Positions 12,443 through 51,955 are shown, counted from the stretch's first letter. The stretch is DNA of 51,955 nucleotides from Tepidisphaeraceae bacterium (GCA_049679725.1 JBAUGM010000160.1:1-51955), one strand, 5' to 3'. Numbers and translations: made by a program. Notes: generated by a model from the letters alone, not told the origin.

Positions 12443-12603
12443 GGCATCGGGAAAGTTAGCCGCAACGCGACGCGGACGGAAGATCGGCGCGGTGGCAGGC
12501 CGGCCGGCGGCACCGGCGACGACCGTCTCTTCGGCGGCACCGGCGACTCAAATGGCTTTTTCCCCGCCCCGCGCGTAACGTGGTGAGTGAAGCGACCCCG
12601 CCC

Positions 12604-12677
<74 letters not shown>

Positions 12678-12712
12678 TTTTCCTTCTGCGACAAGGAGTT
12701 ACGACGCAATCA

Positions 12713-12737
12713 GGGCCTCCGTTACGGAGGCCCTTTT
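12713..12737 (+). terminator. Intrinsic terminator downstream of tRNA-Arg
   Basis: GGGCCTCC (12713-12720), loop GTTAC, GGAGGCCC (12726-12733), then TTTT. Confidence 0.6.
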
Positions 12738-12817
12738 GGGGCCCTTATCACATGAAATATCACATGCGTTTCCGAAAGTGCCGATAACATCGTCGGCGTC
12801 ATCAGCAAGGAGTACGC

Positions 12818-14236
12818 ATGGCGAGACTGCGCGAGGGCAAGATTTCACGGCATCCAGTTCACGGCTTCCGGATAACGGTCGGCCGCAAGGCAGACGGCAA
12901 GCCGAGGCTGTTTTGGCTGGGCAAACACGAGGAGCAGGCGCGGTTCGCCGCCGCGTGCTACCGCTCGGGATGGCGGGAGATGAACGCTGTTGGGATCACT
13001 CACTGGACGCCAGATACGGAACAGCGAGTGAAGGACACGATCGCCTTCAGCCATCGGAAACTTCGTGAGAGATTTCAGGACCACGAACACCGGGCAGCAA
13101 TGATCGGGCCGATGCGCGGAGTCGTGTTCCCGAACGCCACGGCAGCGTGGATGCCAGTGCCCATGCAGCTTCTCATGGTGCCCAACGACACGCCGACCGT
13201 GCAGCAGAAGGGCAAGACCCTGTACCAGGCGATCGAAGCCTATCTCGCGGCACTCAAGGGCAAGCGGGTCTCGGAGGCACACAAATGGAGGGCTGAGCAA
13301 GTGCTCAACGTGACGCTCAAGCGAGTGGTGGCCGACTGTCCGATCGAGCAGATCGATTTCGCTTGGCTCGATACGCTGGCCGATCATTTCAAGTCACGAC
13401 CAAAATCGAGGAAGGGCAAGCGGAAGAACCGCAAGCCGATTAGTCCGCAGACGGTTAAGACGACCCTCGCCTATTTTCGTCAGTTCTTTGTCTGGTGTGA
13501 CGACGTGAGTTTCGGCGGGTGGGAAGGTCCCCGGAAGCTGACCAAGCCGTTCAGAGTTCGGCTTGACGACCTGCGCACACCCTCCGAACTTCGGCGAGCC
13601 AACACCATCGATCAGTTTGACGTTCCAACCCTTGTGCAAATCTACAAGGCAGCGAACGATCACCAGAAGACGATCATGCTGGCCGCCCTCTTCACGGCCG
13701 GTACTCAGAGGGAACTGGCCCTCCTCGAGAAGTCCGAGTTCGATCTGAAGGCGGGAGCCCTGCGCCACTGGAGGAATAAGACGAAAGTCGAGGGTCGGTT
13801 CTGGCTCCCGCCTGAGTTGATCACCTTGCTCAAGGCAGAGTTCAAGAAACACCGCAAGCATCCGCTCGCCTTTTACACCGCCCAAGGATCACCCCTTGTC
13901 ACGTATGCGAGCGGCAAGCTCGTGAGTGACGCGGTGCGGCAAATGTGGCTGGATCTCCGTGTGAAAGCGGAGGTCCCCGATGCTCTGAGTTTCAAGTACC
14001 TTCGGAAGTTCGTCGCTGACTTCATGGTCCGTCATGGGGGAGAAGCGATGGGGCAGATCGCCCTGAGCCATGCGCCGACCACGATGTTGGCGAAGAATTA
14101 CACAACAGCCCGTGACTTCGACGCATTCAACGCGTTACAGCGCCGGATGCACGCAGAGTTCATTGCCGCCGGGATGTTCGAGAAGGACGAGTCAAAGAGC
14201 GCCGACGTGGTGAAGGCTTCTGCGCAAGCCGCATGA
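12818..14236 (+). CDS. Tyrosine-type site-specific integrase
   Basis: 472 aa. The C-terminal catalytic region shows AGTQRELALL (Arg I), FKYLRKFVADFM (box with Arg II) and IALSHAPTTMLAKNYT (His...Tyr). Lies 140 nt downstream of the tRNA. Confidence 0.8.
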   Translation: MARLREGKISRHPVHGFRITVGRKADGKPRLFWLGKHEEQARFAAACYRSGWREMNAVGITHWTPDTEQRVKDTIAFSHRKLRERFQDHEHRAAMIGPMRGVVFPNATAAWMPVPMQLLMVPNDTPTVQQKGKTLYQAIEAYLAALKGKRVSEAHKWRAEQVLNVTLKRVVADCPIEQIDFAWLDTLADHFKSRPKSRKGKRKNRKPISPQTVKTTLAYFRQFFVWCDDVSFGGWEGPRKLTKPFRVRLDDLRTPSELRRANTIDQFDVPTLVQIYKAANDHQKTIMLAALFTAGTQRELALLEKSEFDLKAGALRHWRNKTKVEGRFWLPPELITLLKAEFKKHRKHPLAFYTAQGSPLVTYASGKLVSDAVRQMWLDLRVKAEVPDALSFKYLRKFVADFMVRHGGEAMGQIALSHAPTTMLAKNYTTARDFDAFNALQRRMHAEFIAAGMFEKDESKSADVVKASAQAA

Positions 14237-15868: not shown

Positions 15869-15873
15869 ACACC

Positions 15874-29139: not shown

Positions 29140-29152
29140 AAACGGAGTTCGG

Positions 29153-30508
29153 ATGAACATGCAGCCACCGCCACCCACTCAACCGTCGCAACGGACACTC
29201 ATTGACGCAGTCAGGCAAGGCGAGAAGAAGAAGATCCCGCTCATTCAAGCGTTGAAGCTCACCCGCATCGATCGTGGGAACGTTGCAGACTTCATCGGCG
29301 CGATGAACGAAGTCCCCGGCCCCTTGGCAGCAGAACTTATTGCGCTCGCATGGAGCGACCTTGACGTTGAGTGTCGCCTTTGCGTGGTTCGCGAATGGCT
29401 CGACGGCAAAGACAAAGAGCAACAGGCGGGCGGCTATCATGCACTCTCCGCAAGGCTCCTGATATCCGACTCAGGCGCCGCCATGGACATCCTCGACCGA
29501 GTTGCGAAGCTCGCGGCGGGGTCACCTCCCTGCTTGAGACGGGTCATCTCCACCACCCGTTCGGAATGGGTCGGCACCACCCCAGAGCAAGCGAGGTTTC
29601 AACAGGTCGACCCCTTAAACCTGACCACGAACAGCCGCTTAATGCTCCTGGATTGGCTCTGCGACTGCTGTCCGGCAGAGCTCCGGCCGTCCGATGATGA
29701 GCGTCGGCGGACGGAACTTCAGAAGCACGCCGAGGCAAGGGCGGCTCTCGTTGCAGCTTGGCTCGAGCAGCTGCAAACTAAACAGTTATCAGAGCCTGTC
29801 GCACTCGCCATCGAGCGAAGTCTGGCCCGGCTCCGGCCAAAGGCGACCATCGTCCCGACTGCTCAGCCGGCCCGGCTGGAGATCGAACAGCCGCCCGACA
29901 CGAAGACCTCGACCTCACCCGTTCCCACTCCGCAGAGAACGAGCACAACCCCGCCGCAGGAGGCGGAGACGAACGACATGCTTCGCGAGGTCTTCAGCTC
30001 GATCAGACGCGTGTTTCAAAGGGAATCAGACCTGCATCGCCGCGAACTTCGGTCTGTCGAGTCCGAGTTAGTAAGTGCGAAGGCACAACTGGAGCGATCA
30101 GAACGCGACGCCGCGGCCTATCGAAACGCGAACGCCAAGGCGACGGAGCGCCTGTCAGAATTGGACGAGGAAATGCGAGGGCTCCTGGATGCGCGAGAGA
30201 GGACTGACAAGGAGTTGTCAGAGGCGCGTGAGAAGCTCGTCATCGTTAGCGCGGACCTAGACGCCGAGCGGCGCCAGAAGCAGGCCTTTCGCGATGAAAG
30301 TCACGAGGCCGTGTCAAGAGAAACGCAACGCGAGCGAGACCGTTTGCTGGCGCAGCTCGGGCAGCGGATCGGGAACATTGTTGAGGGTTACCGGGAGATC
30401 CGTGCCCGGGGGCCGCTTCCCGAAGGCACACCCACGATGGTGGGCGACATGATGGACGAGTTATTGTCACGGCTTGAAGCGGCAGGCGTACGTTTCAGGC
30501 GTGAGTGA
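29153..30508 (+). CDS. Coiled-coil protein (helical N-domain, P/T/S-rich linker, long charged coiled coil)
   Basis: Start is ATG 29153 (AACGGAG upstream), 13 nt after the previous stop; track ORF 29063..30508 overlaps the upstream gene. Linker QPPDTKTSTSPVPTPQRTSTTPPQEAE. Coiled coil ELVSAKAQLERSERDAAAYRNANAKATERLSELDEEMRGLLDARERTDKELSEAREKL.... Confidence 0.65.
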   Translation: MNMQPPPPTQPSQRTLIDAVRQGEKKKIPLIQALKLTRIDRGNVADFIGAMNEVPGPLAAELIALAWSDLDVECRLCVVREWLDGKDKEQQAGGYHALSARLLISDSGAAMDILDRVAKLAAGSPPCLRRVISTTRSEWVGTTPEQARFQQVDPLNLTTNSRLMLLDWLCDCCPAELRPSDDERRRTELQKHAEARAALVAAWLEQLQTKQLSEPVALAIERSLARLRPKATIVPTAQPARLEIEQPPDTKTSTSPVPTPQRTSTTPPQEAETNDMLREVFSSIRRVFQRESDLHRRELRSVESELVSAKAQLERSERDAAAYRNANAKATERLSELDEEMRGLLDARERTDKELSEAREKLVIVSADLDAERRQKQAFRDESHEAVSRETQRERDRLLAQLGQRIGNIVEGYREIRARGPLPEGTPTMVGDMMDELLSRLEAAGVRFRRE

Positions 30509-30523
30509 TTCCCAGGGGACTAA

Positions 30524-32002: not shown

Positions 32003-32442
32003 CTGGGCGTCAGCAGATCGAACAGGGAATCGTCCGACCGGCGCCGACCTTCGGCGACGTTCGATCAAACGTGACCGTATGCTCCAACCTCTTCCCGCGG
32101 TCACCGGAGATCTTGGAGCCCGAGCGGGACGTGGCATTCCGTTGCCGCGTCAGGGGTGCGATCGCACTTCGTAACATCGTGCCACCGGGCATTATCGACT
32201 CGATGTCAGGCAAGCACGGAATAGTGAAGCTATCCGAAGCAGATCGGGCGGCAGGTTTCGACGGAACGCTATCGTACGTCGTCTTCGCGCTGCTCCCAGA
32301 GCAGGTGCAAGAACTGCACGCATTCCGGTGCATCGACTGCGGACGCTCGACTGTCAGCGTTTGGTTCGAGAAGGGGCAAGTTCAGCGGCGATTCGTCACA
32401 TGCATGTGTCAGCGCCCAGGCCGGGGAGAGGAATCACGATGA
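31999..32442 (+). CDS. Small protein with C-terminal Cys cluster (possible zinc ribbon)
   Basis: 147 aa. GTG 31999 overlaps the Hsp70-like stop (GTGA), and its own stop overlaps the next ATG (ATGA). C-terminal FRCIDCGRSTVSVWFEKGQVQRRFVTCMCQ (CxxC ... CxC). Confidence 0.5.
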   Translation: MTGRQQIEQGIVRPAPTFGDVRSNVTVCSNLFPRSPEILEPERDVAFRCRVRGAIALRNIVPPGIIDSMSGKHGIVKLSEADRAAGFDGTLSYVVFALLPEQVQELHAFRCIDCGRSTVSVWFEKGQVQRRFVTCMCQRPGRGEESR

Positions 32443-37454: not shown

Positions 37455-38381
37455 ATGCAGTATAGGTTTTCGGGCCACGAGACGTTTCCTTGCCGCTACG
37501 CATGGCTGCCCAAGGCTTTTGGCGAAATCCGCCAGAACCCGAAGGCGCTGGCTGACGACCAAGAGGCAATGATCGCGCTCGGCGTGGGGAAGAACATGGT
37601 GCGGGCTATCCGCTTCTGGCTGCAGATCGCTGGCATGGCGGCCGCAGGAAGCGGCGGCAGCTTTACGCCAACACCATTCGGAAAGGCCGTCTTGAGCCCG
37701 AGGGGAGAAGACCCTTTCCTCGAAGACATCCGCACCCTGTGGCTAATCCACTGGCAGATCGCGACGCACGTCGAGCAACCCCTCTTCGCTTGGGAATTTC
37801 TGCTCAACAGGTGGCCGCATCCGGAGTTCAGTCGCTCCGTCGCCCTGGCCGCCTTCAAGCACGAGGCTCGTCTGCTCGGTAAGGACCTCTCGGAAATCAC
37901 ACTCGAGCAGCACTTCGACGTGTTCCTCCACTCGTACGTCCCGACGCGCGGGCGTAAAGGCGAGGTCTTGGAGGACAACCTCGACTGTCCGCTCGTCGAG
38001 CTGGAATTGATCCAGCGAACCGGCGAGCGACCCACGGGAAAGCAAGGTCACAGGGAGGCCGTCTATGCCTTCAGGCGCGAGGAAAAGCCTGAGATTACGC
38101 CGCCGTTGTTCATCTACTGCCTCGACGATTTCTGGCGTCGATGGCGGCCGTCAGAGCAGACGCTCACACTAAAAGACGTGGCACTTGCGCCGGGAAGCCC
38201 AGGGCAGATATTTAAGCTTCCCGAGGATGACGTACGCGACCGCTTGGAGCGGATCGGCTCGGATTCGGAGCAGCTGTTTGGCTACCGCGAGTCGGCATCT
38301 CTCCAGCACGTCATCAGAAATCGGCAGCCAGAGGGATCGCTACTGGGACGTCTCTACGAGAGGGAGCCGGCACATGCCTGA
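37455..38381 (+). CDS. sspB: DUF4007-family protein (SspB-like)
   Basis: 308 aa. The N-terminus MQYRFSGHETFPCRYAWLPKAF...GVGKNMVRAIRFWL matches my memory of the conserved DUF4007 start (F-SGHETF-R--WL-K). Followed by a large ATPase and a PAPS-reductase gene, as in Ssp loci. Confidence 0.7.
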   Translation: MQYRFSGHETFPCRYAWLPKAFGEIRQNPKALADDQEAMIALGVGKNMVRAIRFWLQIAGMAAAGSGGSFTPTPFGKAVLSPRGEDPFLEDIRTLWLIHWQIATHVEQPLFAWEFLLNRWPHPEFSRSVALAAFKHEARLLGKDLSEITLEQHFDVFLHSYVPTRGRKGEVLEDNLDCPLVELELIQRTGERPTGKQGHREAVYAFRREEKPEITPPLFIYCLDDFWRRWRPSEQTLTLKDVALAPGSPGQIFKLPEDDVRDRLERIGSDSEQLFGYRESASLQHVIRNRQPEGSLLGRLYEREPAHA

Positions 38382-41300
38382 TGCCCGGATCGCTGATCTG
38401 TTTCAGGTACGAACCCGATTCCTTCGCTCAGCCCACCTTGAGCGCGATTTCGAAGACGCTTCGGCGGTGACCGGGTACGTCGTCACCCCGCAGGCGCAGA
38501 ACTACCTGAATCGCCTCGCCTCCGGGCTTGCACCAACATCCGGGCAGCGCGCATGGCGCGTCACAGGTGACTATGGCGTCGGGAAGTCGTCGTTCGCGCT
38601 CGTGCTTGCCCACCTCTTGGGTGGGCGGGCGCGGAGCCTCCCGCCGTCGCTCCGCGATGCGGTTGACCTCTCGCACCTTGGTGCCCGGCGCCCGAAACTC
38701 GTCCCGGTGCTGGTCACCGGTTCGAGAAGCCCGGTCGCGCGGTCGACCCTCCAGGCGCTTGAGCGATCGCTCGACAGGCTTCACCTCCGCGGCCGGCGAC
38801 CGAAGGTGCTTGAGCGGATCCGACAGATGCTTAGCGCGCCCGAGAGCGCGGCCACATCGGACACTGATTTCGTCCAGATTGTTGAAGAGGCGTCACAGTT
38901 TGTCCGCGAGGGCGAACATGGCGTTGGGCTCCTCATAATTTTGGACGAGCTTGGGAAGTTTCTCGAATACGCGGCGCTTCACCCCGACCGGCAGGACATC
39001 TACCTCCTCCAGACGCTCGCGGAGGTAGCCGCTAGGAGCGGGAACACGCCGCTGGTCGTTGTCGGTCTGCTCCATCAAGGTTTCAACGCCTACGCTGACA
39101 GGCTGTCTGAGACTGCCCAGCGCGAATGGCAGAAGGTCGCAGGCCGCTTCGAAGAGCTCATCTTCGATCGGCCGCTCGACCAGACCGCGGCCCTCATCGC
39201 CGACGCACTTAACCTTCCCGTCGAGCGACTGCCACGTGCGATCTCGCGGCGAGCACGGGAGGACATGGCGTCTGCCGACTCACTCGGTTGGTACGGCCCC
39301 GGCAGGAAAGTTGGTGAGCTCACAGCGCTCGCCGCGAGTCTCTACCCGCTCCACGCAACGGTTCTCCCCGTGCTCACTCGGCTCTTCGCTCGCTTCGGTC
39401 AGAACGAGCGTTCCCTGTTTAGTTTCCTCCTGTCGAACGAGCCCTTTGGCCTGCAAGCGTACGCAGAGAGAACGGCAGCGCCTGATCGGTTCTACCGAAT
39501 ACATGACCTCTACGACTACGCGCGAGCGACCTTTGGTCACAGACTCAGCCTCCAGAGCTACCGGAGCCACTGGAACCTCATCGAATCGGTGGTGGAGAGC
39601 TTTCCGGTCGAACACGCGGTCGAGTCGCGGGTTCTAAAGACCGTCGCGATGCTGAACCTTATCGACGACCAGGGGCTTATTGCCACACGCGAGGCGATCG
39701 AACTCGCCACGTCGACAGGCGACAACGATCGCCTCCGCGTGAGAGACGCGGTAGCCAAGCTCCAGAAGAAGCGAGTCCTTTATTTCCGCGGCACCGCCGG
39801 TGGTTACTGCCTGTGGCCGCACACAAGCGTCAACATCGAGAAGGCGTACACGGAGGCCATGAAGGCCGTGGGGCCAATCTCCTGCGTCTCGACACTCATC
39901 GCCGACGAATTCGACACTCGACCTGTTGTCGCCCGTCGTCACTACATCGAGACGGGAAATCTCAGGCACTTCGAGGTGCGGTGCGTCGCGGTGAATGCCC
40001 TCGAAAGTGCCGGACGGGCAGAAGGTCGCGGCGCCGCCGACGGGCTCATTCTCTTGCCGCTGTGTGAGACCGCGGAAGACAGGAAGCTCGCCCTCGCGTT
40101 CGCCCAGTCGGAACCGATGACACGCGAGCCTGCGGTGCTCTGCGCCGTGCCAAAGCCACTTGAGATGCTCCAGTCGATGGTGCAAGAAACCCAGCGATGG
40201 AACTGGGTGTCGCAGAACACCCCGGAGCTCATCCACGACCGCTACGCAGCCGAAGAGGTGTCGCGGCAACTAGCGAACGCGCGCCGCGTGCTCCGAGACC
40301 GTATTCAGGATCTCATAGGGCTACGCACCTCTTCCGGCCGGACCGAGCTCGATTGGTTCCTCCAGGGAAAGCCCGTCCGCATCGCTACGAGCCGGGACCT
40401 CCTCTCGACAATTTCTGATGTGTGTGACGAGGTCTACGCCAGCGCGCCACGAGTGAAGAATGAACTCGTGAACCGGCGGGATCTTAGCACCGCCGCCGCT
40501 TCCGCGCGGATGCGACTCATCGAGCGGCTCTTCTCCTCAGCCGACCAACCACTGCTCGGACTGGATTCGGCAAAGAAGCCGCCCGAGATGTCCATGTACC
40601 TCTCGGTACTGCATCGCGGAAAGATGCACGTGAGCAGGCGGGACGGCCATGAGGTGGTAGAGCCTGGAAAATCGGATGACCCTCTAAACGTAAGGCCGAC
40701 GTTCCGGCGTATGCTTTGGATCCTGCGAGAGAAGCCGGACTTGCGGGTATCGGTATCCCGTTTGTTAGACGAGCTGCGGCGCCCGCCGTTTGGGATTCGC
40801 GACGGCCTCTCGCCGCTCCTACTCGCGGTGTTCGCCGTCATCCACGAGCAGGACCTCGCACTATACGAGGATGGCGCGTTTGTCCGTGAGGTGACGGGAG
40901 AGGAGTTTCTCCGACTGACTAAGAATCCGGCGTCATTCGAGCTCCAATACTGCCGGGTGACAGGCGTCAGGGCGTCGGTCTTCGCACGGCTAGTCCGCGT
41001 ATTACAGCCCGAAGAAGTTTCGGACGACGAGCCGAACGTGCTCGACGTCGTCCGCCCGCTCTGTGTCTTCGCGGCGCAGTTGCCCCAGTACACCCAGCGG
41101 ACGCGGCAGATCTCCGAGCAGGCCCGGTCGGTCAGGGCCGCCCTCACTTCGGCCAAAGAACCGGCGATGCTCCTCTTCCGCGACCTGCCGCTCGCGTGTG
41201 GCCTAAAGCCGTTCGAGTCTCGCGGAGCCCCAGGGGGCGCTACCGTCCGAGGTTTCGTCTCAAAGCTTAAGCGTTCGCTAGACGAACTACGCGCGACCTA

Positions 41301-41859
41301 CCCGACACTCCTGGACGACGTCCGTGAGCAGATTCGGAGCGCCTTCGAACGCCCAGGCGACTTCCCGGAAGTGCGGACAGCGATATCTGAGACGGCACAG
41401 CGGCTTCTCATTTCCATCCACGAACTGAAGCTCCGCGGATTCTGTCTCCGGCTCGCCGATCGCAGCCTCTCAGAACAGGCGTGGGTTGAGGCGTTGGCCG
41501 GGTTCCTCACCGGGAAGCCACCGGCATCCTGGCTCGAAACCGATGCGCAACGTTTTCGCGAGGAGATCCATCGCCATGCTCGAATGTTCCGCCGAGTCGA
41601 GGCGGCGGCGTTCGACGCCACGGGCGCAGAGGGAGCTATCGCCATCCGCGTCGCGGTTACGATGCAGGACGGGTCTGACGTCGAGGAGGTCCTTCACCTC
41701 ACGAGAGAGGAAGAGACGCTCGCGCACGAGCTCGAAGCGAAGATCCTCGCTCTCATCGAGCGATCGAAGCGTGTGGGGCTCGCAGCCGCTTCGCGCGTTC
41801 TCTGGAAGGCACTCGGAGCTCGCGACCTGAGTGGGTCGAAGGTGGAGGATTGCTCGTGA
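38374..41859 (+). CDS. sspC: Large P-loop ATPase (SspC-like)
   Basis: Start is ATG 38374, an 8-nt overlap with the upstream gene, inside track ORF 38185..41859; 1161 aa. Walker A RVTGDYGVGKSSFALVLAHLL. Walker B-like LLIILDELGKFLEY. Its position between the DUF4007 and PAPS-reductase genes supports the call. Confidence 0.6.
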   Translation: MPDARIADLFQVRTRFLRSAHLERDFEDASAVTGYVVTPQAQNYLNRLASGLAPTSGQRAWRVTGDYGVGKSSFALVLAHLLGGRARSLPPSLRDAVDLSHLGARRPKLVPVLVTGSRSPVARSTLQALERSLDRLHLRGRRPKVLERIRQMLSAPESAATSDTDFVQIVEEASQFVREGEHGVGLLIILDELGKFLEYAALHPDRQDIYLLQTLAEVAARSGNTPLVVVGLLHQGFNAYADRLSETAQREWQKVAGRFEELIFDRPLDQTAALIADALNLPVERLPRAISRRAREDMASADSLGWYGPGRKVGELTALAASLYPLHATVLPVLTRLFARFGQNERSLFSFLLSNEPFGLQAYAERTAAPDRFYRIHDLYDYARATFGHRLSLQSYRSHWNLIESVVESFPVEHAVESRVLKTVAMLNLIDDQGLIATREAIELATSTGDNDRLRVRDAVAKLQKKRVLYFRGTAGGYCLWPHTSVNIEKAYTEAMKAVGPISCVSTLIADEFDTRPVVARRHYIETGNLRHFEVRCVAVNALESAGRAEGRGAADGLILLPLCETAEDRKLALAFAQSEPMTREPAVLCAVPKPLEMLQSMVQETQRWNWVSQNTPELIHDRYAAEEVSRQLANARRVLRDRIQDLIGLRTSSGRTELDWFLQGKPVRIATSRDLLSTISDVCDEVYASAPRVKNELVNRRDLSTAAASARMRLIERLFSSADQPLLGLDSAKKPPEMSMYLSVLHRGKMHVSRRDGHEVVEPGKSDDPLNVRPTFRRMLWILREKPDLRVSVSRLLDELRRPPFGIRDGLSPLLLAVFAVIHEQDLALYEDGAFVREVTGEEFLRLTKNPASFELQYCRVTGVRASVFARLVRVLQPEEVSDDEPNVLDVVRPLCVFAAQLPQYTQRTRQISEQARSVRAALTSAKEPAMLLFRDLPLACGLKPFESRGAPGGATVRGFVSKLKRSLDELRATYPTLLDDVREQIRSAFERPGDFPEVRTAISETAQRLLISIHELKLRGFCLRLADRSLSEQAWVEALAGFLTGKPPASWLETDAQRFREEIHRHARMFRRVEAAAFDATGAEGAIAIRVAVTMQDGSDVEEVLHLTREEETLAHELEAKILALIERSKRVGLAAASRVLWKALGARDLSGSKVEDCS

Positions 41860-42665
41860 CCAAGCCGGTTCGCCACATCCTCAGCCTCTCTGGCGGGAAG
41901 GACAGCGCGGCTCTAGCTGTCTACATGCGGGATCGTGTGCCGGAGATGGAGTACATCTTCCACGACACGAAGAAGGAACTCCCGGAAACTTACGAATACC
42001 TGGAACGGCTCGAAGTTCTTCTCGGCAAGAAGATCCATAAGACGACGGTAAACGGCGGGTTCGATCACTGGTTCAAGGTCTACGGCGAAATCATTCCGTC
42101 TAACCACCGGAGATGGTGCACGCGGATGCTCAAGCTGAAGCCGTTCGAACAGTGGGTAGGGGACGACCCGGTCTTCAACTACATCGGCATCCGCGCCGAC
42201 GAAGACCGTGAGGGATACATCAGCCACAAGCCGAACATCACCCCAGTCTACCCGTTCCGCGACGACGGCCTTGTGTACGCTGACGTGGTGAGGCTCCTCG
42301 AAGAGTCGGGACTTGGGCTTCCGCGCTACACCGAATGGGGTCGCACGCGCTCCGGCTGCTTCTTCTGCTTCTACCAGCAGAAGATCGAGTGGGTGCGTCT
42401 GAAGGAGCAGTACCCGGACCTTTACGAAGAGGCGAAGGAGTATGAGAAGGCGAACCGGGTCAACGGGAATGTCTTCTACTGGTCCGGAAACGAATCACTC
42501 GAGGAACTGGAACGCCCTGAGCGAATACAGGAAATCAAGCGGAAGTGGGACGAGTCGCGCGCGCAGCGAAAGAAGCCGAGCGGCAGGAAGAGCCTTCTCC
42601 ACATCTTGGGTGACCTCGAAGATCCTGACGAGCCCAGAGAGGGATGCCTCATCTGTCAGCTGTAA
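41856..42665 (+). CDS. sspD: PAPS reductase / PP-loop ATP pyrophosphatase family protein (SspD / DndC-like)
   Basis: The track ORF starts at TTG 41850. GTG 41856 overlaps the upstream stop (GTGA) and follows GGTGGAGGA. PP-loop ILSLSGGKDSAALAVY. Cys pairs GCFFC and GCLIC. Confidence 0.8.
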   Translation: MTKPVRHILSLSGGKDSAALAVYMRDRVPEMEYIFHDTKKELPETYEYLERLEVLLGKKIHKTTVNGGFDHWFKVYGEIIPSNHRRWCTRMLKLKPFEQWVGDDPVFNYIGIRADEDREGYISHKPNITPVYPFRDDGLVYADVVRLLEESGLGLPRYTEWGRTRSGCFFCFYQQKIEWVRLKEQYPDLYEEAKEYEKANRVNGNVFYWSGNESLEELERPERIQEIKRKWDESRAQRKKPSGRKSLLHILGDLEDPDEPREGCLICQL

Positions 42666-42779
42666 GTACAGCAAATGCGCGATCTTGCCGCGCTCCGGCG
42701 CGAGCGTAAAGCGGCGCCGACCTGTAGAATTGCCGCAGGCTCGATCGGCCGCTCCTGGTAGTACAAAAGAGGTGAGGGG

Positions 42780-44636
42780 ATGAACGACTTGGGCGTGTCG
42801 TGGCTGAAGTTCGTGCGGCAGTACGGACCCATAGCGAAGAACGACAGCATGTACGACGAGACGATCCAACGATCGGCCCGCCGTAACCGCATCCGTCCCG
42901 TCACGTTCGAACACCCTCAGTACCAGGATGTGCTCAACTGCATGACAGGCTCAGATTGCGAGGGCTCCGTCGTCCTTACCGGAACAGCGGGGGATGGGAA
43001 AACCCACCTCTGCCGTGCCCTGTGGGAGAGGCTCGGCGGGGACACAAAGCTCTGGGCAGCGGATGAACCGTATCTGACAACCCATTCGACATCCGGAGCG
43101 ACGCTGCACGTGATCCGAGACCTAAGCGCGTGGGTTCCTCAGCGCGACGCCGACTGGCCGCAGGAGAAGCTTGAGCTACTCACCCGCTTCTCCCGGTCGC
43201 TCTTCAACCCAACAGAGCGGGACGTGTTCCTCGTCGCCGCGAACGACGGCCAGCTCCTAGAAACCTGGAGGCGCCTCCCGGATCTCCCGGAGATCGTCCG
43301 TTCTCGCGCCGCGCTGGAAACATTGCTAGTTGAGGACCGCCAAGAGTTACCCGACACGCGGGTTCGCTGCTTCAACCTGAGCCGCGGCAGCTCCGCCGCC
43401 GTGCTCGACCGGGCCCTCGATGCGTTTCTCTCGCACGACGGATGGGATGAGTGCTACGCGGGCAGCTCGGCGGACGACGAGGTCTTCGGCCCGAACTGCC
43501 CGATCCGTCACAACTACGAGCTCCTCAAACAGTCGCTCGTCCGCCAGCGTCTCCGCGCGCTCTTCGAGCTATGCGACTACAATGGGCTCCACATCCCGAT
43601 TCGACAGATTCTCCTCCTGCTTTCGAATGGGGTGCTGGGACATCCCGATGCCGCCGACCGCTTGATGGTGCCCGGCGACGTACCGAAGATCTTAAGGGCC
43701 CGGACACGCGGCAAGGCGAGTCTCTACAACAACCTCTTCGGAGGAAACCTCACCGAGACGCGACGCGAGTCGTTGCCGATCTTTGAGTACCTCGACCGGT
43801 TCCGCATCGGTCACGAAACTTCAAACCGCATCGACAACGTGCTCATATTCGGCGAAGCCGACGAAACGTTCCGTCCGTATTTTGACGAGCTTCTTCTCGC
43901 CGACACGTTCTACGGGGCCGACGAAGCGTATCGGTGCGAACAGCGCGCCTATATCGAAGCGGGTGATGAAGAGGAGGAACGCGGTTCTGGATTTCTCGAC
44001 CACCTCGTCAGTCAGAGGCGCGGCCTTTTCTTCAAGATTCCGCTCAAATGGGAGGACGAACTCCACCTGTGGGAGCTCACCGTCTTCCGCTACGCTGGCG
44101 AGTATCTGGACCACGTCGTCCGAACGCTCCAGAACGGCAATCGCGTGCCTGGGCCGCTTTTGGGCCGACTGGTCAAGGGGCTCAACCGGGTATTCGTTGG
44201 CATGCTCGTCGCGGGCGAACGTGAGCTTTTCCTAGCGACCAGCCTCTCCTTTGCAAACGCAAAGGTCAGTCGGCTTCTCGAAGAGAGAATCTCGGTACCG
44301 CCGCGTCTCGGCGAGAAGGTCGAAATCGTCCTGAGTAGCGGCACACCGACTTTGAACGTCGCACTCGCGCCCGACATCCAGTGTCCCCTAGCGCTTCACC
44401 TTGTCCGCTACGAGTTCCTGAGCCGTGTGGCGGACGGCGCTCTCCCGAGCAGTTTTAGCCGAGAGTGTTACGAGGATATACTCGCGTTCAAGAGCCAGAT
44501 CCTAGCCGGTATCGAACAGCGGCGCCTCGCACAGGGTGAGGACCGGGACGTCTCGGGTCTCGTGTTCCATCTCTTTGACTTAGACGATTCAGGGGTGCCG
44601 TCGGAGGAGACGGTAGAGGTGGTGATCGATGCCTAA
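42780..44636 (+). CDS. P-loop NTPase, DptF/DndF- or SspF-like by position
   Basis: 618 aa. Walker A VVLTGTAGDGKTHLCRAL. First gene after a 114-nt gap. Size and order (about 600, 520 and 1760 aa) parallel the phosphorothioation-dependent restriction trios. Confidence 0.5.
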   Translation: MNDLGVSWLKFVRQYGPIAKNDSMYDETIQRSARRNRIRPVTFEHPQYQDVLNCMTGSDCEGSVVLTGTAGDGKTHLCRALWERLGGDTKLWAADEPYLTTHSTSGATLHVIRDLSAWVPQRDADWPQEKLELLTRFSRSLFNPTERDVFLVAANDGQLLETWRRLPDLPEIVRSRAALETLLVEDRQELPDTRVRCFNLSRGSSAAVLDRALDAFLSHDGWDECYAGSSADDEVFGPNCPIRHNYELLKQSLVRQRLRALFELCDYNGLHIPIRQILLLLSNGVLGHPDAADRLMVPGDVPKILRARTRGKASLYNNLFGGNLTETRRESLPIFEYLDRFRIGHETSNRIDNVLIFGEADETFRPYFDELLLADTFYGADEAYRCEQRAYIEAGDEEEERGSGFLDHLVSQRRGLFFKIPLKWEDELHLWELTVFRYAGEYLDHVVRTLQNGNRVPGPLLGRLVKGLNRVFVGMLVAGERELFLATSLSFANAKVSRLLEERISVPPRLGEKVEIVLSSGTPTLNVALAPDIQCPLALHLVRYEFLSRVADGALPSSFSRECYEDILAFKSQILAGIEQRRLAQGEDRDVSGLVFHLFDLDDSGVPSEETVEVVIDA

Positions 44637-46188
44637 TGGGGACGAGCGCCTGCCAGCTCCACATCCGGGTGACCATAACGTCACCCTATGGCTTGACGAA
44701 CAGATATGGGGGCACAGGCTCTGGGACTCGCAAACGCCGTGGCTATTGTTCCTTGAGTTCCTGAACATCGCCGAGGGCGCGCGCAGACAGGGCAAGCTCC
44801 TGGACAACGCCGGAGATGACGAGCCGATCAGCTACCGGCCCTACCGGCGGATGTTCCTAAGGAATATCCTCTTCAACAACGATAAGATCAGCGAGATCGA
44901 CGAGCGGTTCAGGGACAGCTCCCAAGCCTGGACGGCCTGGCTAAAGCTAATGTCAGAGCGCGCACAGGCAGTAACGCCGCGTGACTTCTCTTACCTTAAA
45001 ATCCACTTCCACAGCTTCCACGACTTCGCCTCGCTCGTCGCTATGCTTCGGACCTCGGCGGTTGAAAGCGAGACAAACAAGCGATGGAACTCTCGCTTCG
45101 TCTTTCCGTTTGGGCCCAACGGACTATACGTCGACCTAGCCATCACCCCGACCGGAGACACGAGCCGCGAGTACATTAATTTCGGGCGGACCGGAGAGCT
45201 GATCTACCTCATGCTCTCGCGGTCCACTGCGTCAGCCGGTATCCGACCGCATCTTGAGCGCGTGCTCGCCGGTGACAAGAAGTGGAACCGCCTCCTCGGG
45301 CTCCTGCAGCCGGAGACAGAGGAAGACCTGGAACGTTCGGGGAAGAGTAGCTACCTCCCCTACCGGAGACATCCCACATTCGATCGGCTCGCCGAGGACT
45401 GGCTCCGGGTATTTGAACTGGGGCTACCGGGTTTCGACGCATTCCCGCACCTCGTAACTCTGAGCGCGTTCCATGTGCTCCTTTACCAGCTCACGCTTGC
45501 CGCCAAATGGGCCGGTACGACGCGGGCGCCTCACATGGTCTGCGAGGTGGTTGCCCCGCGAAAGACGCTCGTTCGGGAGCGGTCGTCCGAGAACTACCAG
45601 GACAACAACCTGCTGACTGAACAGGCTGTGCGAGCGTTCATCAAGTCCGAGGTGGAGGACTCTCCAGACTGGCAGAATGCCGTAACAACCTCGCTTACCG
45701 AACAAGAGGCGTTTGCGAAATGCCGGAAGCTTCTCGCTGACTTGCTCTGGTGGGGTGAGGATTACGACGGGCCGCGGAACCCGGAGGCCCTAATCTCTGA
45801 GCTAAAGACCATCGCCCTGAAGCGCCACCGGCAGCACGTGGCGAACGTCCACCGGAACTACGGGAAGCACGTTGGCCTAGTTTCGAAGCGCGGCACGAAC
45901 AAGCTCCGCTACGCTCCGACCGACGGACTCCTAAAGACGCTTGTCCTCGCGAACGTCGAGCACCGGCTAGAGCTCGGGGAGTTCTTGAGGCGACTCTTCG
46001 ATCGATATGGGCTCATCTTCGGGGATCGGGAGGCCGAGGTAGTGCTCGCGCACGCCGATCACGACAAGAAGGCGTTTCAAGCGAACGCCCGTCGCCTGGA
46101 GCAGCGACTCGGTAGCCTCGGGATGTTGCGCCGCCTTTCGGACAGCTGTGCATACGTGGAGAATCCTCTGGCGCGGAGGGGTGGATGA
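44629..46188 (+). CDS. Hypothetical protein, DptG/DndG- or SspG-like by position
   Basis: 519 aa. 8-nt overlap upstream and ATGA overlap downstream. No motif recognised. Confidence 0.45.
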   Translation: MPNGDERLPAPHPGDHNVTLWLDEQIWGHRLWDSQTPWLLFLEFLNIAEGARRQGKLLDNAGDDEPISYRPYRRMFLRNILFNNDKISEIDERFRDSSQAWTAWLKLMSERAQAVTPRDFSYLKIHFHSFHDFASLVAMLRTSAVESETNKRWNSRFVFPFGPNGLYVDLAITPTGDTSREYINFGRTGELIYLMLSRSTASAGIRPHLERVLAGDKKWNRLLGLLQPETEEDLERSGKSSYLPYRRHPTFDRLAEDWLRVFELGLPGFDAFPHLVTLSAFHVLLYQLTLAAKWAGTTRAPHMVCEVVAPRKTLVRERSSENYQDNNLLTEQAVRAFIKSEVEDSPDWQNAVTTSLTEQEAFAKCRKLLADLLWWGEDYDGPRNPEALISELKTIALKRHRQHVANVHRNYGKHVGLVSKRGTNKLRYAPTDGLLKTLVLANVEHRLELGEFLRRLFDRYGLIFGDREAEVVLAHADHDKKAFQANARRLEQRLGSLGMLRRLSDSCAYVENPLARRGG

Positions 46189-49100
46189 GAGACTACCGCC
46201 GCTCGGAACTAATCGGTCGGGTCGCAGCGTCATATCTACGCGCGCAGCTGGCTCGCGGCGAGACGGACGGCACAGCTCGATTCATCATCGACTGCCTAAG
46301 CCCGGAGCAGACCGCCGCCATTGCGAAAGCGATCCTGGCTGACCCGGAGCTCGAACGACAGGTCGACCTCAAACTGCCTGCGCACTTCGTCCACGATCAA
46401 GGGCTTCCGGCGGCGGTACTCACCGAAGAACGCGCCACCTACTTCCGTCACGCAGCGTGCGACAAGCCTGCACGCGTGTTCGCCAACACGGGCGACGACG
46501 AGGGTCAGTCGCTGAAGGAAGTAGCGCAGATCGGCGCCCCGCAGCTACAGGAGCACCCAGAGCTTTGGGTGTTGGTTGCAGCCGACGGGCTCCTCCTACC
46601 GCCGGATCAGCTCAAGTGGTGGGAGAAGGCATTGGGCGGTCTGCACGACCTTCGGTCTTTTCCTTTGGATGGCGTGTCGGCCTACGTGCTCCTGACGAGG
46701 AACTTGATCCGAGACGAAGGACTCCCGCTCATTTCGGCGCTGGGTGCAGCACTCCCCGCGTTGAGGCTTCCAAAGGACTCTTGTTACTTCAATCGGCTCA
46801 ACGACAAGGCTAGGACCCAGCCCGCACGGTGGCGCACCCTCTTCTCTGATGCGCAGAAGAAACGCGGATGCTTCCTGGGGAAACGCACGCCCTCTCAGGT
46901 GATGCTCGGCGAAGAGGAACTTCTTGCCGCGTGGGAGAAGGTGCGTGAAGGGATCCCGGCAGTCCACCACCCGAAGGCCGAGGCGTTTATCCGCTCGCCC
47001 GCGACCTGGAACGACGAGGCAGCAGCGCTTTCGGAATGCGAGTGGGAAGACATCAAGCCACTCTTCGATGGCCTCAAGCGAGAGAAGTTCAATCTTGCCC
47101 AAGAGACGATCAACTTCTACGCGGAACGCGAGCCCGAGTTGCTGAGCAACGATGATCGCGAATACCTCAAACGGCTTGTGGATCGACGGACCACGGAGCC
47201 GGAAGAAGAAGACGAAGACTTCTACGACGCGCACAGGAACGAACTCCGGGACGACCGGAAGCTCCGGTCCGCGTGGGACCGCTTCGTCTTCGGATCGCCT
47301 CGCGAGACCGAAGACTTCCTGTCCGGTCTGGTCGTGTGTCTCGATTCACTCTTCAACCGCGAGGAGCCGGGGAGCCGTCGCGTGCTCCGCATCTACTCGG
47401 ACCGGCGTACGAAGCGAGACCTCAAGGAACTGAACGTCGATGCCGGAATCTACTTCGCGCGTCGGTACAAGGGGCTCATGCAGCTGTTCGGCCGCGGACT
47501 GAAATGGGACGTGGGCGAACTCTTCAATTTCCCGGAGCTTGTTGAGACGTGGAGAGGTGCGAAGCGGTCCACACTCAATTACTCGACTTCAAAGTCAGCC
47601 CTTCAGTTAAAGTTCGTTCTGACTCTGGACGTCGAGCTCCCGCGCGGCGGCACCCAGAGCTACTCGACCCAACTCATTTGGAAGTTCGATCCGAAGCAAG
47701 TCGCGACCGAATTCGCGGAAGATTGGAGTCGCCTCGTCGAACATCCGCTCGTTGCGTGCCGCGTGAACCGCGAGCCCGTGACGGGTAAGGGACAATTCCA
47801 GACGGTGGACCTCGCGAACGTCAGGACCTTTAGCGCCGGGTTCGGTCAGGACCGAGGATCCTTCGTCTCGGTTTACCGCAGGGCAAATGACCTGGGTCTC
47901 CAGTGGCTGAACAATCTCGAAGCGGCGCAAAAGCAGGGGCTGTTAGACAAGCGCTCGGCAGATGTTCTGTCGGAGAACTTTGAAGCGTTTTCCTCAGCGT
48001 ACACCGACGCCATCAAAGGGTTCCGCGATCAGGGCTTAAGCCACCCGGCGATACTCGAACAGTTCAGCACATTTTCGGACCTTCTTGATGCCCTATGCCG
48101 TCACGCAAAAGGGGACAGAAGCCGAGAGCTCCTTCTAAAGCCGCTCCTCCAGCTTGGCGTGGTCGCGGTAGACGGTGGAAGGCCGACTGCGATTGTGGCG
48201 CCGTGGCAGCCGCTACGGCTTGCTGCGATGGCAATCAAAGCGCAGCGGGTCGCGGAACTCGTGAAACACCTGCTCACGGCCGATCAGATCGACTTCGGTG
48301 ACTCACGCCTCTTCTTCCGGGACACGCAGGAAGAGCTCCAGCACCCCTTCTACCCGGAGCTCGTCCTTGGCTGGCACGAGCACGAGCCGCAGCTTCTATC
48401 GTTAACGGACGTCGCGGGCGACTACAGCCTGCACGAGTCTCCGGTTGTCACCAACGACGGCCTCGATGACACAAACGAGAACCCCACGGAAGGCGCAGCC
48501 CGCGTCATCGAACTCGTCCGTCGATACCTCGCACTTCATCCTCACGAACAGGCGAACTTGTCCGTAGTTCTTTACAACTGCGACTCCGCACGACTCCCAG
48601 AGGCGGTCGTGGACAAGATCGGGGCAATGCACGAGGACGAAGATGACGTCCGCTGCCAGGTAATCCTCAGGCACCGTGATGCGAAGCGCCTCCGGCGCCT
48701 CTACGAGAACATTATTCAGTCATCCGGGAGCGATCCGGACGCGTTCAGCGCGAGTGAGGCGACCCGGGATTTCATGGCCCGTCTCCGGATCGGCATCATG
48801 GCAGACCAGGCGCCGGTGCCTGATCCAAAGGACGGAGCACCTGCCGACATCGTATTCTCGCAGGACGTCATCGCGCGACACGCACGCATCGAGTGGTTCA
48901 CCGAAGACGCGAGGCCTGTCGCAACCACCACTTTCGTCCCGCCCAGATGGTCCAGGCGCCGCCCTGCTGCGCAGCATGACATGAAGTCGGTCGTCTACCT
49001 CTGCTGTCCCGTGCAGACCCGCGAAGGGTGGACGTATCTCACCGCCATTTCCTCGTTTCTGCGTGGAGACTGGAACGAGGACGAAGCGCGACGCCTGCTG

Positions 49101-51473
49101 CCGGCCCGCCAACTCGACTTCCGGGATGTAACCACCGCACGAATCTTCGAGGAGACACACAACCTTGCGAATTGGGTCGTGAATTACGACGAACTGCTCG
49201 ACCGTCGGCAGCTTCTGAATCACCAGGTAAAGGTGATCCGCTACAAGCAGTCGGCTACCCAGGGTCGAAACGTCATCATCTCGTCGAAGGCGCCGTTAAG
49301 TCTGCTCCGCTCGATGGTGCTTGGACGGCTCCGCGATTTGAACCTCGACGCTCCGGACGTGAATTACGAGGCGCTGGCAGACCGATTTATCCAGGACGCC
49401 AATGACGTGTCCGGAGACATCGTACTCCGCGCAGCCAAGCGCGGTCGAAATGCGAGTGAGTTGATGGGGATCGTACTGAGCCGATTCCTCATTCGCCGCG
49501 AACTGGGACAAGAGAGGCTCTACGGCTGGTACTTTCTAGACGACTACGCACAATGGCTCGGTCAACGCGAGGAGCAGATTGCAGACATCCTCGCGCTGAG
49601 CCCCGAGCGAACCACGGACGGGAAGCTACGTCTCGCAGTCGTTGTCTCAGAGGCCAAATATATCGGCGCTGACAATCTCGCGTCGAAGCGAAATGAGTCT
49701 CAGAAACAGCTGCGGGATACGGTACGCCGAATCGTCGACGCCGCATTTGGCAGTCCGGAGCGTCTCGATCGAGATCTCTGGCTTGCTCGCCTTTCAGATC
49801 TCATCCTTGACGGCGTGCAGGTGCCGCCCGCCGCGGCCGTTAACCTCTCCGAATGGCGACGTGCCATCCGCGAGGGCGCTTGCGAGATCTATGTGCGCGG
49901 ATACTCACACGTGTTCGTCTCAGGTCCGAGCGACGCCGCAGACACGTCAGATTTTGTGAGCGTTGCCGACGTGGACAATTGCTACCAGGAGGTGTTCAGC
50001 CGCGCGAGGGTCCGGCAGCTCGTCCTTCGCTACGCGCGTCATGAAGACCCGATGCAGGTGCGCCGCGAGGAGGCGACGGAAGATGTTTGGGCAAAAAAGG
50101 AGTATCGGAGCCCGACAAAGACCTCTGCTGCAGAGGAAGAGCCCGCGCCGCGTGACGACAAGGACCGGAAAGGCCGCTCGGGCGACGGTGGCGGCAGCGG
50201 AATTCGCATGAAAGACCCAAAGCCGCGTGACTCGGCGCCAGAAAGCACAGTTCGTGATCCAAGGGAGACTAAGGCCGATCCGTCCCCTGAGGGGCGTAAA
50301 CCGAAAAATAATGGTGGCTTAAGCCGCTTTGCATATCCCTCCATCGAAGGGCTTCTGCCGGAAGTGGGAACGTCGAACGAGCCTGCGCCGGACGAGCGAG
50401 AATGGCTCGATCAGGTAGCAAATCGGACACGCGCAGCACTTCAACAGTTCCAGCTCCAGTCGAAGCTCCTCCAGTTGACCATCACACCAAACGCGGCGCT
50501 CCTGAAGTTCGCCGGAAGTGCCAACCTAACGGTCGAACAGGTTCTCAGACGACGGAGTGAGTTCCTGACGACACACGGGCTCAACATCGTCTCGGTCCAA
50601 CCCGAGCCGGGTGTGGTCAGCCTCTCGGTTGAGCGCCCCACGCGAAAGGTCGTCGGGATTGACGAGCTCTGGGCCCGTTGGACGCCCGACTCCGCCAAAG
50701 GGAATCAGGAGCTCCTCATCGGCGTTCGCGAGGAGAACGGGAGCCTGCTCTTCCTATCGCCGGGAAAGCAGCACGCGCCGCACACACTCATCGCCGGTTC
50801 GACCGGCAGCGGCAAGTCCGTCCTGATGCAGAACATTATCCTCGACATCGCAGCGACGAACACTCCGGAGCAGGCGAAGATCGTACTTATCGACCCGAAA
50901 CAAGGCGTCGACTACTTCCAGTTCGAAGAGCTCCCGCACCTCTCCGGCGGCCTAATCGATCGCCACGAAGTTGCGCTCGAACGCCTAAGGGCACTCGTCG
51001 ATGAAATGGACGACCGGTACGCGAAGTTCCGCGCGGCGAGGGCACAGAACCTCGCGGCCTACAACCAGAAGGTGCCTTCCACGGAACAACTGCCCGCGAT
51101 CTGGCTCATTCACGATGAGTTCGCCGAATGGATGATGATCGACGAGTACAAGAATGAAGTAACGGCGACAGTTGGCAGGTTGGGCGTTAAAGCGCGCGCC
51201 GCGGGGATCTACCTCGTATTCGCTGCACAGCGTCCGGATGCCAACGTCATGCCCATGCAGCTTCGGGCCAACCTCGGCAACCGGCTCATTCTACGCGTAG
51301 ACTCTGAAGGTACGTCCGAGATCGCGCTCGGCCAACCGGGTGCCGAACGCCTGCTCGGGCGCGGACATCTCTTAGCGAAGCTTGAGGGCGTCCCCGGTGT
51401 GGTCTTTGGGCAGGTTCCATTTGTCCCGCCGGAATTCGCGGAAAGCGTCGTCTCGTCCACCCGTGGCGGATGA
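46185..51473 (+). CDS. Giant protein with C-terminal FtsK/SpoIIIE-type ATPase domain (DptH/DndH- or SspH-like)
   Basis: 1762 aa. An N-terminal ~1300 aa region has no motif I recognise. Then a disordered K/R/D/P/G-rich linker (~50090-50330). Then an FtsK-like motor: HTLIAGSTGSGKSVLMQNIILDI (Walker A), AIWLIHDEFAEWMM (Walker B), IYLVFAAQRPDANVMPMQLRANLGNRLILRV. Confidence 0.75.
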   Translation: MRDYRRSELIGRVAASYLRAQLARGETDGTARFIIDCLSPEQTAAIAKAILADPELERQVDLKLPAHFVHDQGLPAAVLTEERATYFRHAACDKPARVFANTGDDEGQSLKEVAQIGAPQLQEHPELWVLVAADGLLLPPDQLKWWEKALGGLHDLRSFPLDGVSAYVLLTRNLIRDEGLPLISALGAALPALRLPKDSCYFNRLNDKARTQPARWRTLFSDAQKKRGCFLGKRTPSQVMLGEEELLAAWEKVREGIPAVHHPKAEAFIRSPATWNDEAAALSECEWEDIKPLFDGLKREKFNLAQETINFYAEREPELLSNDDREYLKRLVDRRTTEPEEEDEDFYDAHRNELRDDRKLRSAWDRFVFGSPRETEDFLSGLVVCLDSLFNREEPGSRRVLRIYSDRRTKRDLKELNVDAGIYFARRYKGLMQLFGRGLKWDVGELFNFPELVETWRGAKRSTLNYSTSKSALQLKFVLTLDVELPRGGTQSYSTQLIWKFDPKQVATEFAEDWSRLVEHPLVACRVNREPVTGKGQFQTVDLANVRTFSAGFGQDRGSFVSVYRRANDLGLQWLNNLEAAQKQGLLDKRSADVLSENFEAFSSAYTDAIKGFRDQGLSHPAILEQFSTFSDLLDALCRHAKGDRSRELLLKPLLQLGVVAVDGGRPTAIVAPWQPLRLAAMAIKAQRVAELVKHLLTADQIDFGDSRLFFRDTQEELQHPFYPELVLGWHEHEPQLLSLTDVAGDYSLHESPVVTNDGLDDTNENPTEGAARVIELVRRYLALHPHEQANLSVVLYNCDSARLPEAVVDKIGAMHEDEDDVRCQVILRHRDAKRLRRLYENIIQSSGSDPDAFSASEATRDFMARLRIGIMADQAPVPDPKDGAPADIVFSQDVIARHARIEWFTEDARPVATTTFVPPRWSRRRPAAQHDMKSVVYLCCPVQTREGWTYLTAISSFLRGDWNEDEARRLLPARQLDFRDVTTARIFEETHNLANWVVNYDELLDRRQLLNHQVKVIRYKQSATQGRNVIISSKAPLSLLRSMVLGRLRDLNLDAPDVNYEALADRFIQDANDVSGDIVLRAAKRGRNASELMGIVLSRFLIRRELGQERLYGWYFLDDYAQWLGQREEQIADILALSPERTTDGKLRLAVVVSEAKYIGADNLASKRNESQKQLRDTVRRIVDAAFGSPERLDRDLWLARLSDLILDGVQVPPAAAVNLSEWRRAIREGACEIYVRGYSHVFVSGPSDAADTSDFVSVADVDNCYQEVFSRARVRQLVLRYARHEDPMQVRREEATEDVWAKKEYRSPTKTSAAEEEPAPRDDKDRKGRSGDGGGSGIRMKDPKPRDSAPESTVRDPRETKADPSPEGRKPKNNGGLSRFAYPSIEGLLPEVGTSNEPAPDEREWLDQVANRTRAALQQFQLQSKLLQLTITPNAALLKFAGSANLTVEQVLRRRSEFLTTHGLNIVSVQPEPGVVSLSVERPTRKVVGIDELWARWTPDSAKGNQELLIGVREENGSLLFLSPGKQHAPHTLIAGSTGSGKSVLMQNIILDIAATNTPEQAKIVLIDPKQGVDYFQFEELPHLSGGLIDRHEVALERLRALVDEMDDRYAKFRAARAQNLAAYNQKVPSTEQLPAIWLIHDEFAEWMMIDEYKNEVTATVGRLGVKARAAGIYLVFAAQRPDANVMPMQLRANLGNRLILRVDSEGTSEIALGQPGAERLLGRGHLLAKLEGVPGVVFGQVPFVPPEFAESVVSSTRGG

Positions 51474-51955
51474 TGCCTAGTCGGACGATGGGACACGAGC
51501 GATGCTTTGCGCACCACCGCTCGATACAGCGCGGCGGCGGCGGCGGCGCACGACGGGTTGAGCGTGACGTTCACGCACGCCGGCGGCGCGATCGCGCTGC
51601 GGCTGTTCGACGTCTACTACGCGGACAACACGGCGGGTCCGGCGCTGGGGGCGCCGACGTTCACGCTCGGCGGCGTGCTCGCGCCCGTGCATGAACGGTA
51701 TGCGTACGACACGTCGGACCGGCGGGTGGTCAAAGAGATCGACGTCAACAACGACGACGATTTCACGGACCCCGAGGACACGACCGAGGCGTTCGTCTAC
51801 GACGGGGACGAGATCGCGCTGGTATTCGACGTGGACGATCAGAACGTCAGCACGCTGAAGAACCGCTACCTGCACGGCCCGGGCGTGGACGACGTGCTGG
51901 CGGAGGAGGCGGTGCGGGACTTCACGCTCTCCACGACGACGGTGACGCTGGACGG
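51474..51955 (+). CDS. RHS / YD-repeat protein fragment (no start codon; continues past the right edge)
   Basis: Not in the track because it has no in-window stop. Same frame as the preceding gene, opening right after its TGA. ...HERYAYDTSDRRVVKEIDVNNDDDFTDPEDTTEAFVYDGDEIALVFDVDDQNVSTLKNRYLHGPGVDDVLAEE shows YD-repeat and RHS-type Y-LHG-G-D--LA motifs. The minus ORF 51477..51875 is its antisense shadow. Confidence 0.6.

Follow-up and report, generated by a model that had tools for sequence, protein, structure and literature searches.

A 51,955-nucleotide stretch of DNA from a Tepidisphaeraceae bacterium (GCA_049679725.1, JBAUGM010000160.1:1-51955), referred to here in its entirety as the window, carries on its plus strand, between positions 37455 and 51473, six tightly packed genes in an operon-like arrangement, in the order sspB-sspC-sspD-sspF-sspG-sspH. 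Comparison of these genes with profile collections, solved structures and related loci indicates that they very probably constitute an intact phosphorothioate (PT) restriction-modification system of the SspBCD-SspFGH type, compact in layout and located on a tRNA-Arg-associated defence island.

The modification module opens with sspB (37455..38381), encoding a 308-residue DUF4007 DNA-binding and nicking subunit, which is followed by sspC (38374..41859), encoding a large P-loop ATPase of the BrxC/PglY type (1161 residues), and by sspD (41856..42665), whose 269-residue product is an ATP pyrophosphatase with the PAPS-reductase fold. The true start of sspC is the ATG at 38374, giving an 8-nucleotide overlap with the sspB stop, and not the upstream TTG at 38185 that was assigned in the list of open reading frames (ORFs). 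The start of sspD is the GTG at 41856, which lies in a GTGA overlap with the sspC stop, with an alternative TTG at 41850. A 114-nucleotide spacer (42666..42779) forms the boundary between the modification and restriction modules. The latter consists of sspF (42780..44636), encoding a 618-residue P-loop NTPase, sspG (44629..46188), encoding a mostly helical subunit of 519 residues and overlapping sspF by 8 nucleotides, and sspH (46185..51473), which overlaps sspG by 4 nucleotides and encodes a subunit of 1762 residues. All six genes lie on the plus strand, are full length when compared with their homologues and contain no frameshifts. The gene coordinates and sizes given in a preliminary description of this DNA were found to be correct when the ORFs and the sequence were read, and the domains it had proposed were recovered (DUF4007, PAPS_reduct and FtsK_SpoIIIE with Pfam, together with the Walker A and PP-loop motifs).

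Within the modification module, SspB matched the Pfam DUF4007 family (5.8e-67) and, over its full length, the PADLOC SspB profile (3.8e-113), and the solved SspB structures 6JUF and 6LB9 matched it with an E-value of 2.5e-30. SspC gave a full-length match to PADLOC SspC (E=0, 1378 bits), with PADLOC BrxC in second place at 3.4e-136, and its Walker A motif (GDYGVGKS, residue 65) is intact. A weak match to Pfam AAA_16 was also obtained, the BrxC/PglY N-terminal family was only weakly matched, both in the window SspC and in its relatives, and the SspC sequence found no match among PDB sequences. The preliminary description had further expected DUF499 in this protein, but the Pfam search did not detect it. 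SspD was identified by PADLOC SspD (3.9e-116) and Pfam PAPS_reduct (1.1e-10), with a secondary match to PADLOC BrxP (7.7e-10), and has an intact PP-loop (SGGKDS, residue 12); more than 8000 homologue clusters were found for it, the closest at 84% identity, while a blastn search of E. coli genomes with sspD in distant mode returned no match. The sequence-level features of SspBCD membership, namely a DUF4007 SspB, an SspC with an intact Walker A and an SspD with a PP-loop, were all present.

The three downstream proteins are assigned, on the basis of profile similarity, to SspFGH specifically. SspF matched the PADLOC SspF profile over its full length at 3.9e-213 and carries an intact Walker A motif (GTAGDGKT, residue 68); Pfam returned weak AAA matches for SspF as well as for SspC. 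SspG aligned with PADLOC SspG at 1.3e-190, residues 17-514 falling on profile positions 3-498 of 498, and is represented by 1353 homologue clusters. SspH matched PADLOC SspH with E=0 and 2247 bits (residues 6-1757 on profile positions 3-1763 of 1766) and ends in an FtsK_SpoIIIE motor (Pfam 2.1e-34; residues 1528-1684, nucleotides 50766-51236), the Walker A motif of which (GSTGSGKS, residue 1538) is intact; the FtsK motor structure 2IUU matched this C-terminus at 2.8e-36. No known domain was found in the N-terminal ~1340 residues of SspH, no match among PDB sequences was obtained with the SspF and SspG profiles, and an exact look-up of the window SspH in the contig collection gave no entry. The sequence-level features of SspFGH membership were found together, with a Walker A in SspF, an SspG homologue, an SspH of ~1750 residues with a C-terminal motor, and adjacency to sspBCD.

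The preliminary description had noted three overlapping genes with a Walker A in the first and an FtsK-type motor in the last, with which motifs and Pfam agree, and had likened the trio to both DndFGH/DptFGH and SspFGH. The second likeness was upheld by the full-length profile matches, the first was not. A DndFGH/DptFGH-type module would make the trio a partner of double-stranded PT, and the DndABCDE-DndFGH (DptFGH) systems do share with the window a PT mark and a three-gene restriction complex built around a P-loop protein and an FtsK/HerA-type motor. This resemblance, also noted in PMC8092258, is a general one, comprising three genes with a Walker A in the first and the motor in the last. 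However, there is no significant sequence similarity between the two sets of proteins: PADLOC DndF (0.0029) and DndH (0.003) matched short P-loop stretches, compared with 1e-213 to E=0 over the full length for the Ssp profiles, and the PADLOC DndG profile gave no match in the window. The modification genes also differ, as the neighbours of the trio are SspBCD with DUF4007 and not DndBCDE, the DndC profile reaching only 0.0041. Because the DndF, DndH and DndC profiles thus scored only around 3e-3 on short stretches, the trio was determined to be SspFGH, and its identity as DndFGH/DptFGH, refuted at the sequence level by the profile scores, is left with next to no probability.

A more distant likeness was seen to MADS, the methylation-associated defence system. 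The C-terminal part of SspG matched NCBIfam MAD7 at 2.7e-10, under the cutoff of that family, Pfam PF26611 (MAD7) was matched in relatives, and the PADLOC mad8 profile matched the SspH motor at 7.2e-22. SspG thus appears to be distantly related to MAD7. MADS itself, however, is based on methylation and comprises eight genes; the matches to it are partial and lie under the curated cutoffs, and its other genes are absent from the window.

The closest characterised counterpart is the SspBCD-SspFGH system of Vibrio anguillarum FF-93 (Wang et al. 2021, mBio 12:e00613-21; PMC8092258), which comprises the same six families in the same order. In both, sspBCD is followed directly by a tightly packed sspFGH with no adjacent sspA, and in both SspF carries a Walker A and SspH a C-terminal FtsK/SpoIIIE-like motor. 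FF-93 differs in belonging to another host lineage, the likeness of the window proteins having been judged through PADLOC profiles. The window is a metagenomic contig, and the flanks of the closest relative suggest that its host is probably Planctomycetota-like. The prototype SspFGH is toxic in the absence of PT and suppresses phage T4 DNA replication, and the sspBCD-sspFGH cassette has a wide distribution, with 196 strains reported (PMC8092258). The same SspBCD module is also found in the SspABCD-SspE systems of Vibrio cyclitrophicus FF75 and E. coli 3234/A (Xiong et al. 2020), so far as these are summarised in PMC8092258. According to that summary, SspE activity is stimulated by PT, whereas SspFGH attacks DNA without PT, and the window differs from these systems in having neither SspE (DUF262/DUF1524) nor SspA, its partner being SspFGH. 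An SspE-coupled reading of the locus was likewise rejected, as DUF262, the SspE-type N-terminal domain, gave no tblastn match in the window and neither DUF262 nor DUF1524 was found by Pfam among ORFs of at least 600 residues outside the cassette.

The neighbourhoods of close relatives displayed the order B-C-D-F-G-H, and one genome per species was surveyed with an SspF alignment. The 59 loci returned span Acidobacteriota, Verrucomicrobiota, Planctomycetota, Chloroflexota, Bacteroidota, Proteobacteria and other phyla. All six genes were present in 48 of them, and in 46 of these 48 the order B-C-D-F-G-H was collinear on one strand; 22 of the 48 were as compact as the window. The proteins of collinear relatives showed 49-83% full-length identity to those of the window, rising to 64-83% for the closest. 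Plasmid-borne relatives bore no annotation more specific than hypothetical, DUF4007, PAPS reductase or FtsK-domain protein. Taken with the full-length profile matches, these collinear relatives sustain the principal proposal of the preliminary description, namely that an SspBCD module without SspA is joined to a PT-dependent restriction trio and obtains its sulfur in trans.

The source of that sulfur was considered in view of the gene content of the window. When the 52-kb window was searched by tblastn with the cysteine desulfurases of three related loci (L002, L010 and L069), no such enzyme was found (best E 0.29); DndB-like queries also found no match there by tblastn. The reported absence of both a desulfurase and an SspE-type gene from the window was therefore correct, tblastn and Pfam being in agreement. 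The implication that a missing SspA is unusual, by contrast, did not hold, as this is both the published norm and the commonest form among relatives. The FF-93 prototype has no adjacent sspA and was reconstituted with IscS, making CpsC PT, and sspA may lie next to sspBCD or elsewhere in the genome, an IscS orthologue being able to substitute for it functionally (PMC8092258). PMC12914056 likewise allows sspA to be next to the module or at another site, adds that a homologue such as iscS may take its place, and treats sspBCD as the minimal gene set. Among the 48 six-gene loci, 35 had no desulfurase within 10 kb of sspF and 13 did; when the count was restricted to loci flanked on each side by 2.5 kb or more, the gene was present within 10 kb in 9 of 33. 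Where present, it was located upstream of sspB or just after sspH (L002, L010, L069).

The absence of a desulfurase from the window could also be taken to mean that the locus installs a modification other than PT, as the preliminary description had suggested, and the secondary matches of SspC to BrxC (3.4e-136) and of SspD to BrxP (7.7e-10) could likewise point to a BREX type 4-like system. These secondary matches are, however, expected, because Ssp and BREX type 4 are known to be related, and the Ssp profiles scored far higher for both proteins (1378 bits for SspC, 3.9e-116 for SspD). Furthermore, no PglZ or BrxL was found among the window ORFs scanned, a DUF4007 SspB is present, and BREX type 4 was rejected on profile scores and gene content. 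A different modification is also hard to reconcile with the finding that BREX type 4 itself makes PT (PMC12914056), and with the relatives: the similarity to the window is no lower for loci with a desulfurase in the cassette (SspD 69-74% identical) than for loci lacking one. This favours a shared sulfur chemistry, for which the window system would receive its donor in trans. The suggestion of a different modification is thus without support, and a BREX type 4-like system, or one that makes a mark other than PT, was considered very improbable.

The spacer between the two modules contains a short stem-loop (42677-42693) and a strong ribosome-binding site, GAGGTGAGGGG, before the sspF ATG. No sigma-70 consensus promoter was found in it, which says little for a non-enteric host, and as sspFGH forms a separately transcribed operon in the prototype (PMC8092258), an internal promoter in the spacer is plausible. 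In relatives, the same junction holds various accessory genes. An HNH protein is encoded there in L001, L007, L009 and L070, an Mrr_cat protein in L004 and L022, a DndB-like protein with a ~168-residue partner in L011, L018, L027, L042, L046 and L061, a GmrSD_N/DUF262 protein with SIR2 in L023 and with a protein kinase in L024, and a ParB_N protein in L022 and L033. The sspC-sspD junction holds an HATPase_c_3 gene with a partner of ~660-750 residues in L001, L002, L007, L020 and L044. Both of these junctions are hot spots at which accessory effector genes are inserted; the window cassette has none of those seen in relatives, and no accessory nuclease is present in the window. In L070, a small gene for an S-adenosylmethionine-dependent methyltransferase (Methyltransf_23/31/11; 15343-15948) lies directly 3' of sspH and has no counterpart in the window.

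Several points weigh against the interpretation of the locus as an intact PT restriction-modification system. The HNH gene found at the sspD-sspF junction of the nearest relatives, L070, L001 and L007, is missing from the window; if HNH were the effector nuclease of this clade, restriction in the window could be weakened. In addition, both PT modification and restriction activity would be attributed to the locus by analogy with the characterised family, the modified motif would not be readable from the sequence of the locus, and the desulfurase is assumed to lie outside the 52-kb window. It was therefore also considered that the locus is a decaying or partly inactive copy, in which modification fails without SspA, no desulfurase being encoded in the 52 kb, or restriction fails following loss of HNH. 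The loss of HNH has a counterpoint in the survey, where 22 of the 48 loci also lack a gene at the sspD-sspF junction, so that the compact form without junction cargo is common, and comparison with the closest relatives revealed no remnant or scar of an HNH gene in the window spacer. As for modification, the active prototype also used IscS. Moreover, the six ORFs are full length, free of frameshifts and intact in their catalytic motifs, and because an active trio would be self-toxic without modification (PMC8092258), the presence of both modules intact together argues for function. Decay or partial inactivity was accordingly judged very improbable, and the locus was retained as an intact SspBCD-SspFGH system.

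In the literature searched, no subunit of SspFGH was identified as the one that cuts DNA. An AlphaFold2 model of SspG was of good quality (predicted local distance difference test score, pLDDT, 86; predicted template modelling score 0.88), and a Foldseek search of the PDB gave no significant match (best E 0.56), weak matches of the MukE/JetB type not being credible. A model of SspH residues 1-1200 (pLDDT 72) was good to about residue 750 and poor beyond, and also gave no significant match in the PDB (best E 0.14), although truncation of the model at residue 1200 has probably cut through the domain of interest. Since the fold of SspG and the first 1200 residues of SspH both lack a counterpart among solved structures, the restriction complex may contain new folds. 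Within residues ~1115-1160 of SspH (nucleotides ~49527-49664), just upstream of the motor, E1129, D1134 and E1156-x-K1158 are invariant across 35 homologues and fall in GWYFLDDY...ADILALSPE...SEAKY, in a strand-strand-helix context. This pattern resembles a PD-(D/E)xK nuclease core, a motif-level guess put forward as a hypothesis. For SspH 1085-1270, a Pfam search of 16 members, a profile search of PDB sequences, and hhalign comparisons to an Mrr_cat protein and to a NERD region were all non-significant. That SspH is itself the DNA-cutting subunit, as a translocase-nuclease fusion, is consequently a tentative and rather doubtful proposal; if true, it would explain how the compact six-gene form does without HNH, Mrr, DUF262 or SIR2 accessory genes.

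By analogy with the characterised systems, a mechanism for the locus can be proposed. A housekeeping desulfurase of the IscS, NifS or SufS type, encoded outside the window, would supply persulfide sulfur, which SspD, as a PP-loop ATP pyrophosphatase, would activate and transfer. The choice of site would be made by SspB, through DUF4007-associated nicking and DNA recognition, together with the P-loop ATPase SspC, and the sulfur would replace a non-bridging phosphate oxygen on one DNA strand, as it does at 5'-CpsCA-3' in studied systems. SspF as P-loop NTPase, SspG, and SspH as FtsK-type translocase would then act jointly on DNA without PT, damaging it and blocking phage DNA replication, and the host's own chromosome would be shielded by its PT marks.

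The genomic surroundings of the cassette place it on a mobile element. A tRNA-Arg(TCG) gene was located by ARAGORN on the plus strand at 12603-12678, followed on the same strand by a tyrosine integrase gene at 12818-14236, whose match to Pfam Phage_integrase (6.4e-06, 26.5 bits) is just below the curated cutoff of 27.1 bits, and past 13 kb the guanine-plus-cytosine (GC) content falls from ~0.65 to ~0.60. The tRNA-Arg and integrase genes (12603..14236) are likely to form the left end of the mobile defence island bearing the cassette. The window contains no further copy of the tRNA-Arg 3' end (attR) and so does not extend to the right end of the island. In the closest relative, L070, however, a 48-nucleotide copy of the tRNA-Arg 3' end (17781-17828), 96% identical to window positions 12633-12680, lies 2.5 kb downstream of sspH; there is no tRNA gene at this position, and the copy looks like an attachment-site scar. 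Beyond it are PSCyt2, PSD1 and DUF1501 genes, families typical of Planctomycetota. These observations suggest that the ssp cassette moves on tRNA-Arg-targeting islands. Given the tRNA-Arg gene, the integrase, the drop in GC content and the scar in L070, it was determined that the cassette in the window is cargo of a tRNA-Arg integrative defence island, on which it lies beside a Druantia-like cluster.

Between the integrase and the cassette, the window encodes a DnaB-like helicase (17791-19407), a Mu Gam-like protein on the minus strand (21289-21918) and a 611-residue NERD and UvrD-like helicase on the plus strand (24234-26069; PADLOC 'RTasNERD-Hel' 1e-43). The last of these heads the defence gene string, and no reverse transcriptase gene adjoins it. 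The Druantia-like cluster comes next, upstream of the ssp cassette, at 26083-37259 on the plus strand. It ends in a DruE-like helicase of 1643 residues (32328-37259, plus strand; PADLOC DruE1 1.3e-167) with DEAD, Helicase_C and MZB domains, which is preceded by an Hsp70/MreB-like ATPase (30524-32002, plus strand; HSP70 4.9e-42) and a 147-residue ORF. Proteins of 1018 and 481 residues encoded upstream of the helicase gave no Pfam or PADLOC match. Judged on these matches, the cluster appears to be of the Druantia type, with partner genes that have no match among the catalogued Dru proteins, and its novelty may exceed that of the ssp cassette. On the other side of the cassette, an RHS/YD-repeat ORF on the plus strand (51477-51955; YAYDTSDRRVVKEID ... 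RYLHGPGVDDVLA) begins immediately downstream of sspH and is truncated by the window end.

The locus therefore adds one more instance, of environmental origin and probably from a Planctomycetota-like bacterium, to a defence system known since 2021. The type of system is already known and the lack of a sulfur-donor gene is its usual state, so the finding is real but ordinary; understanding of SspBCD-SspFGH is unchanged, and the comparative by-products are of modest value. What novelty is left resides in SspG and most of SspH, which are still structurally uncharacterised, and in the junction cargo of the relatives. For the family as a whole, the comparison indicates that roughly three in four SspBCD-SspFGH loci depend on a desulfurase from another part of the genome, and the window provides a case in which the system is carried by an integrative defence island associated with tRNA-Arg.

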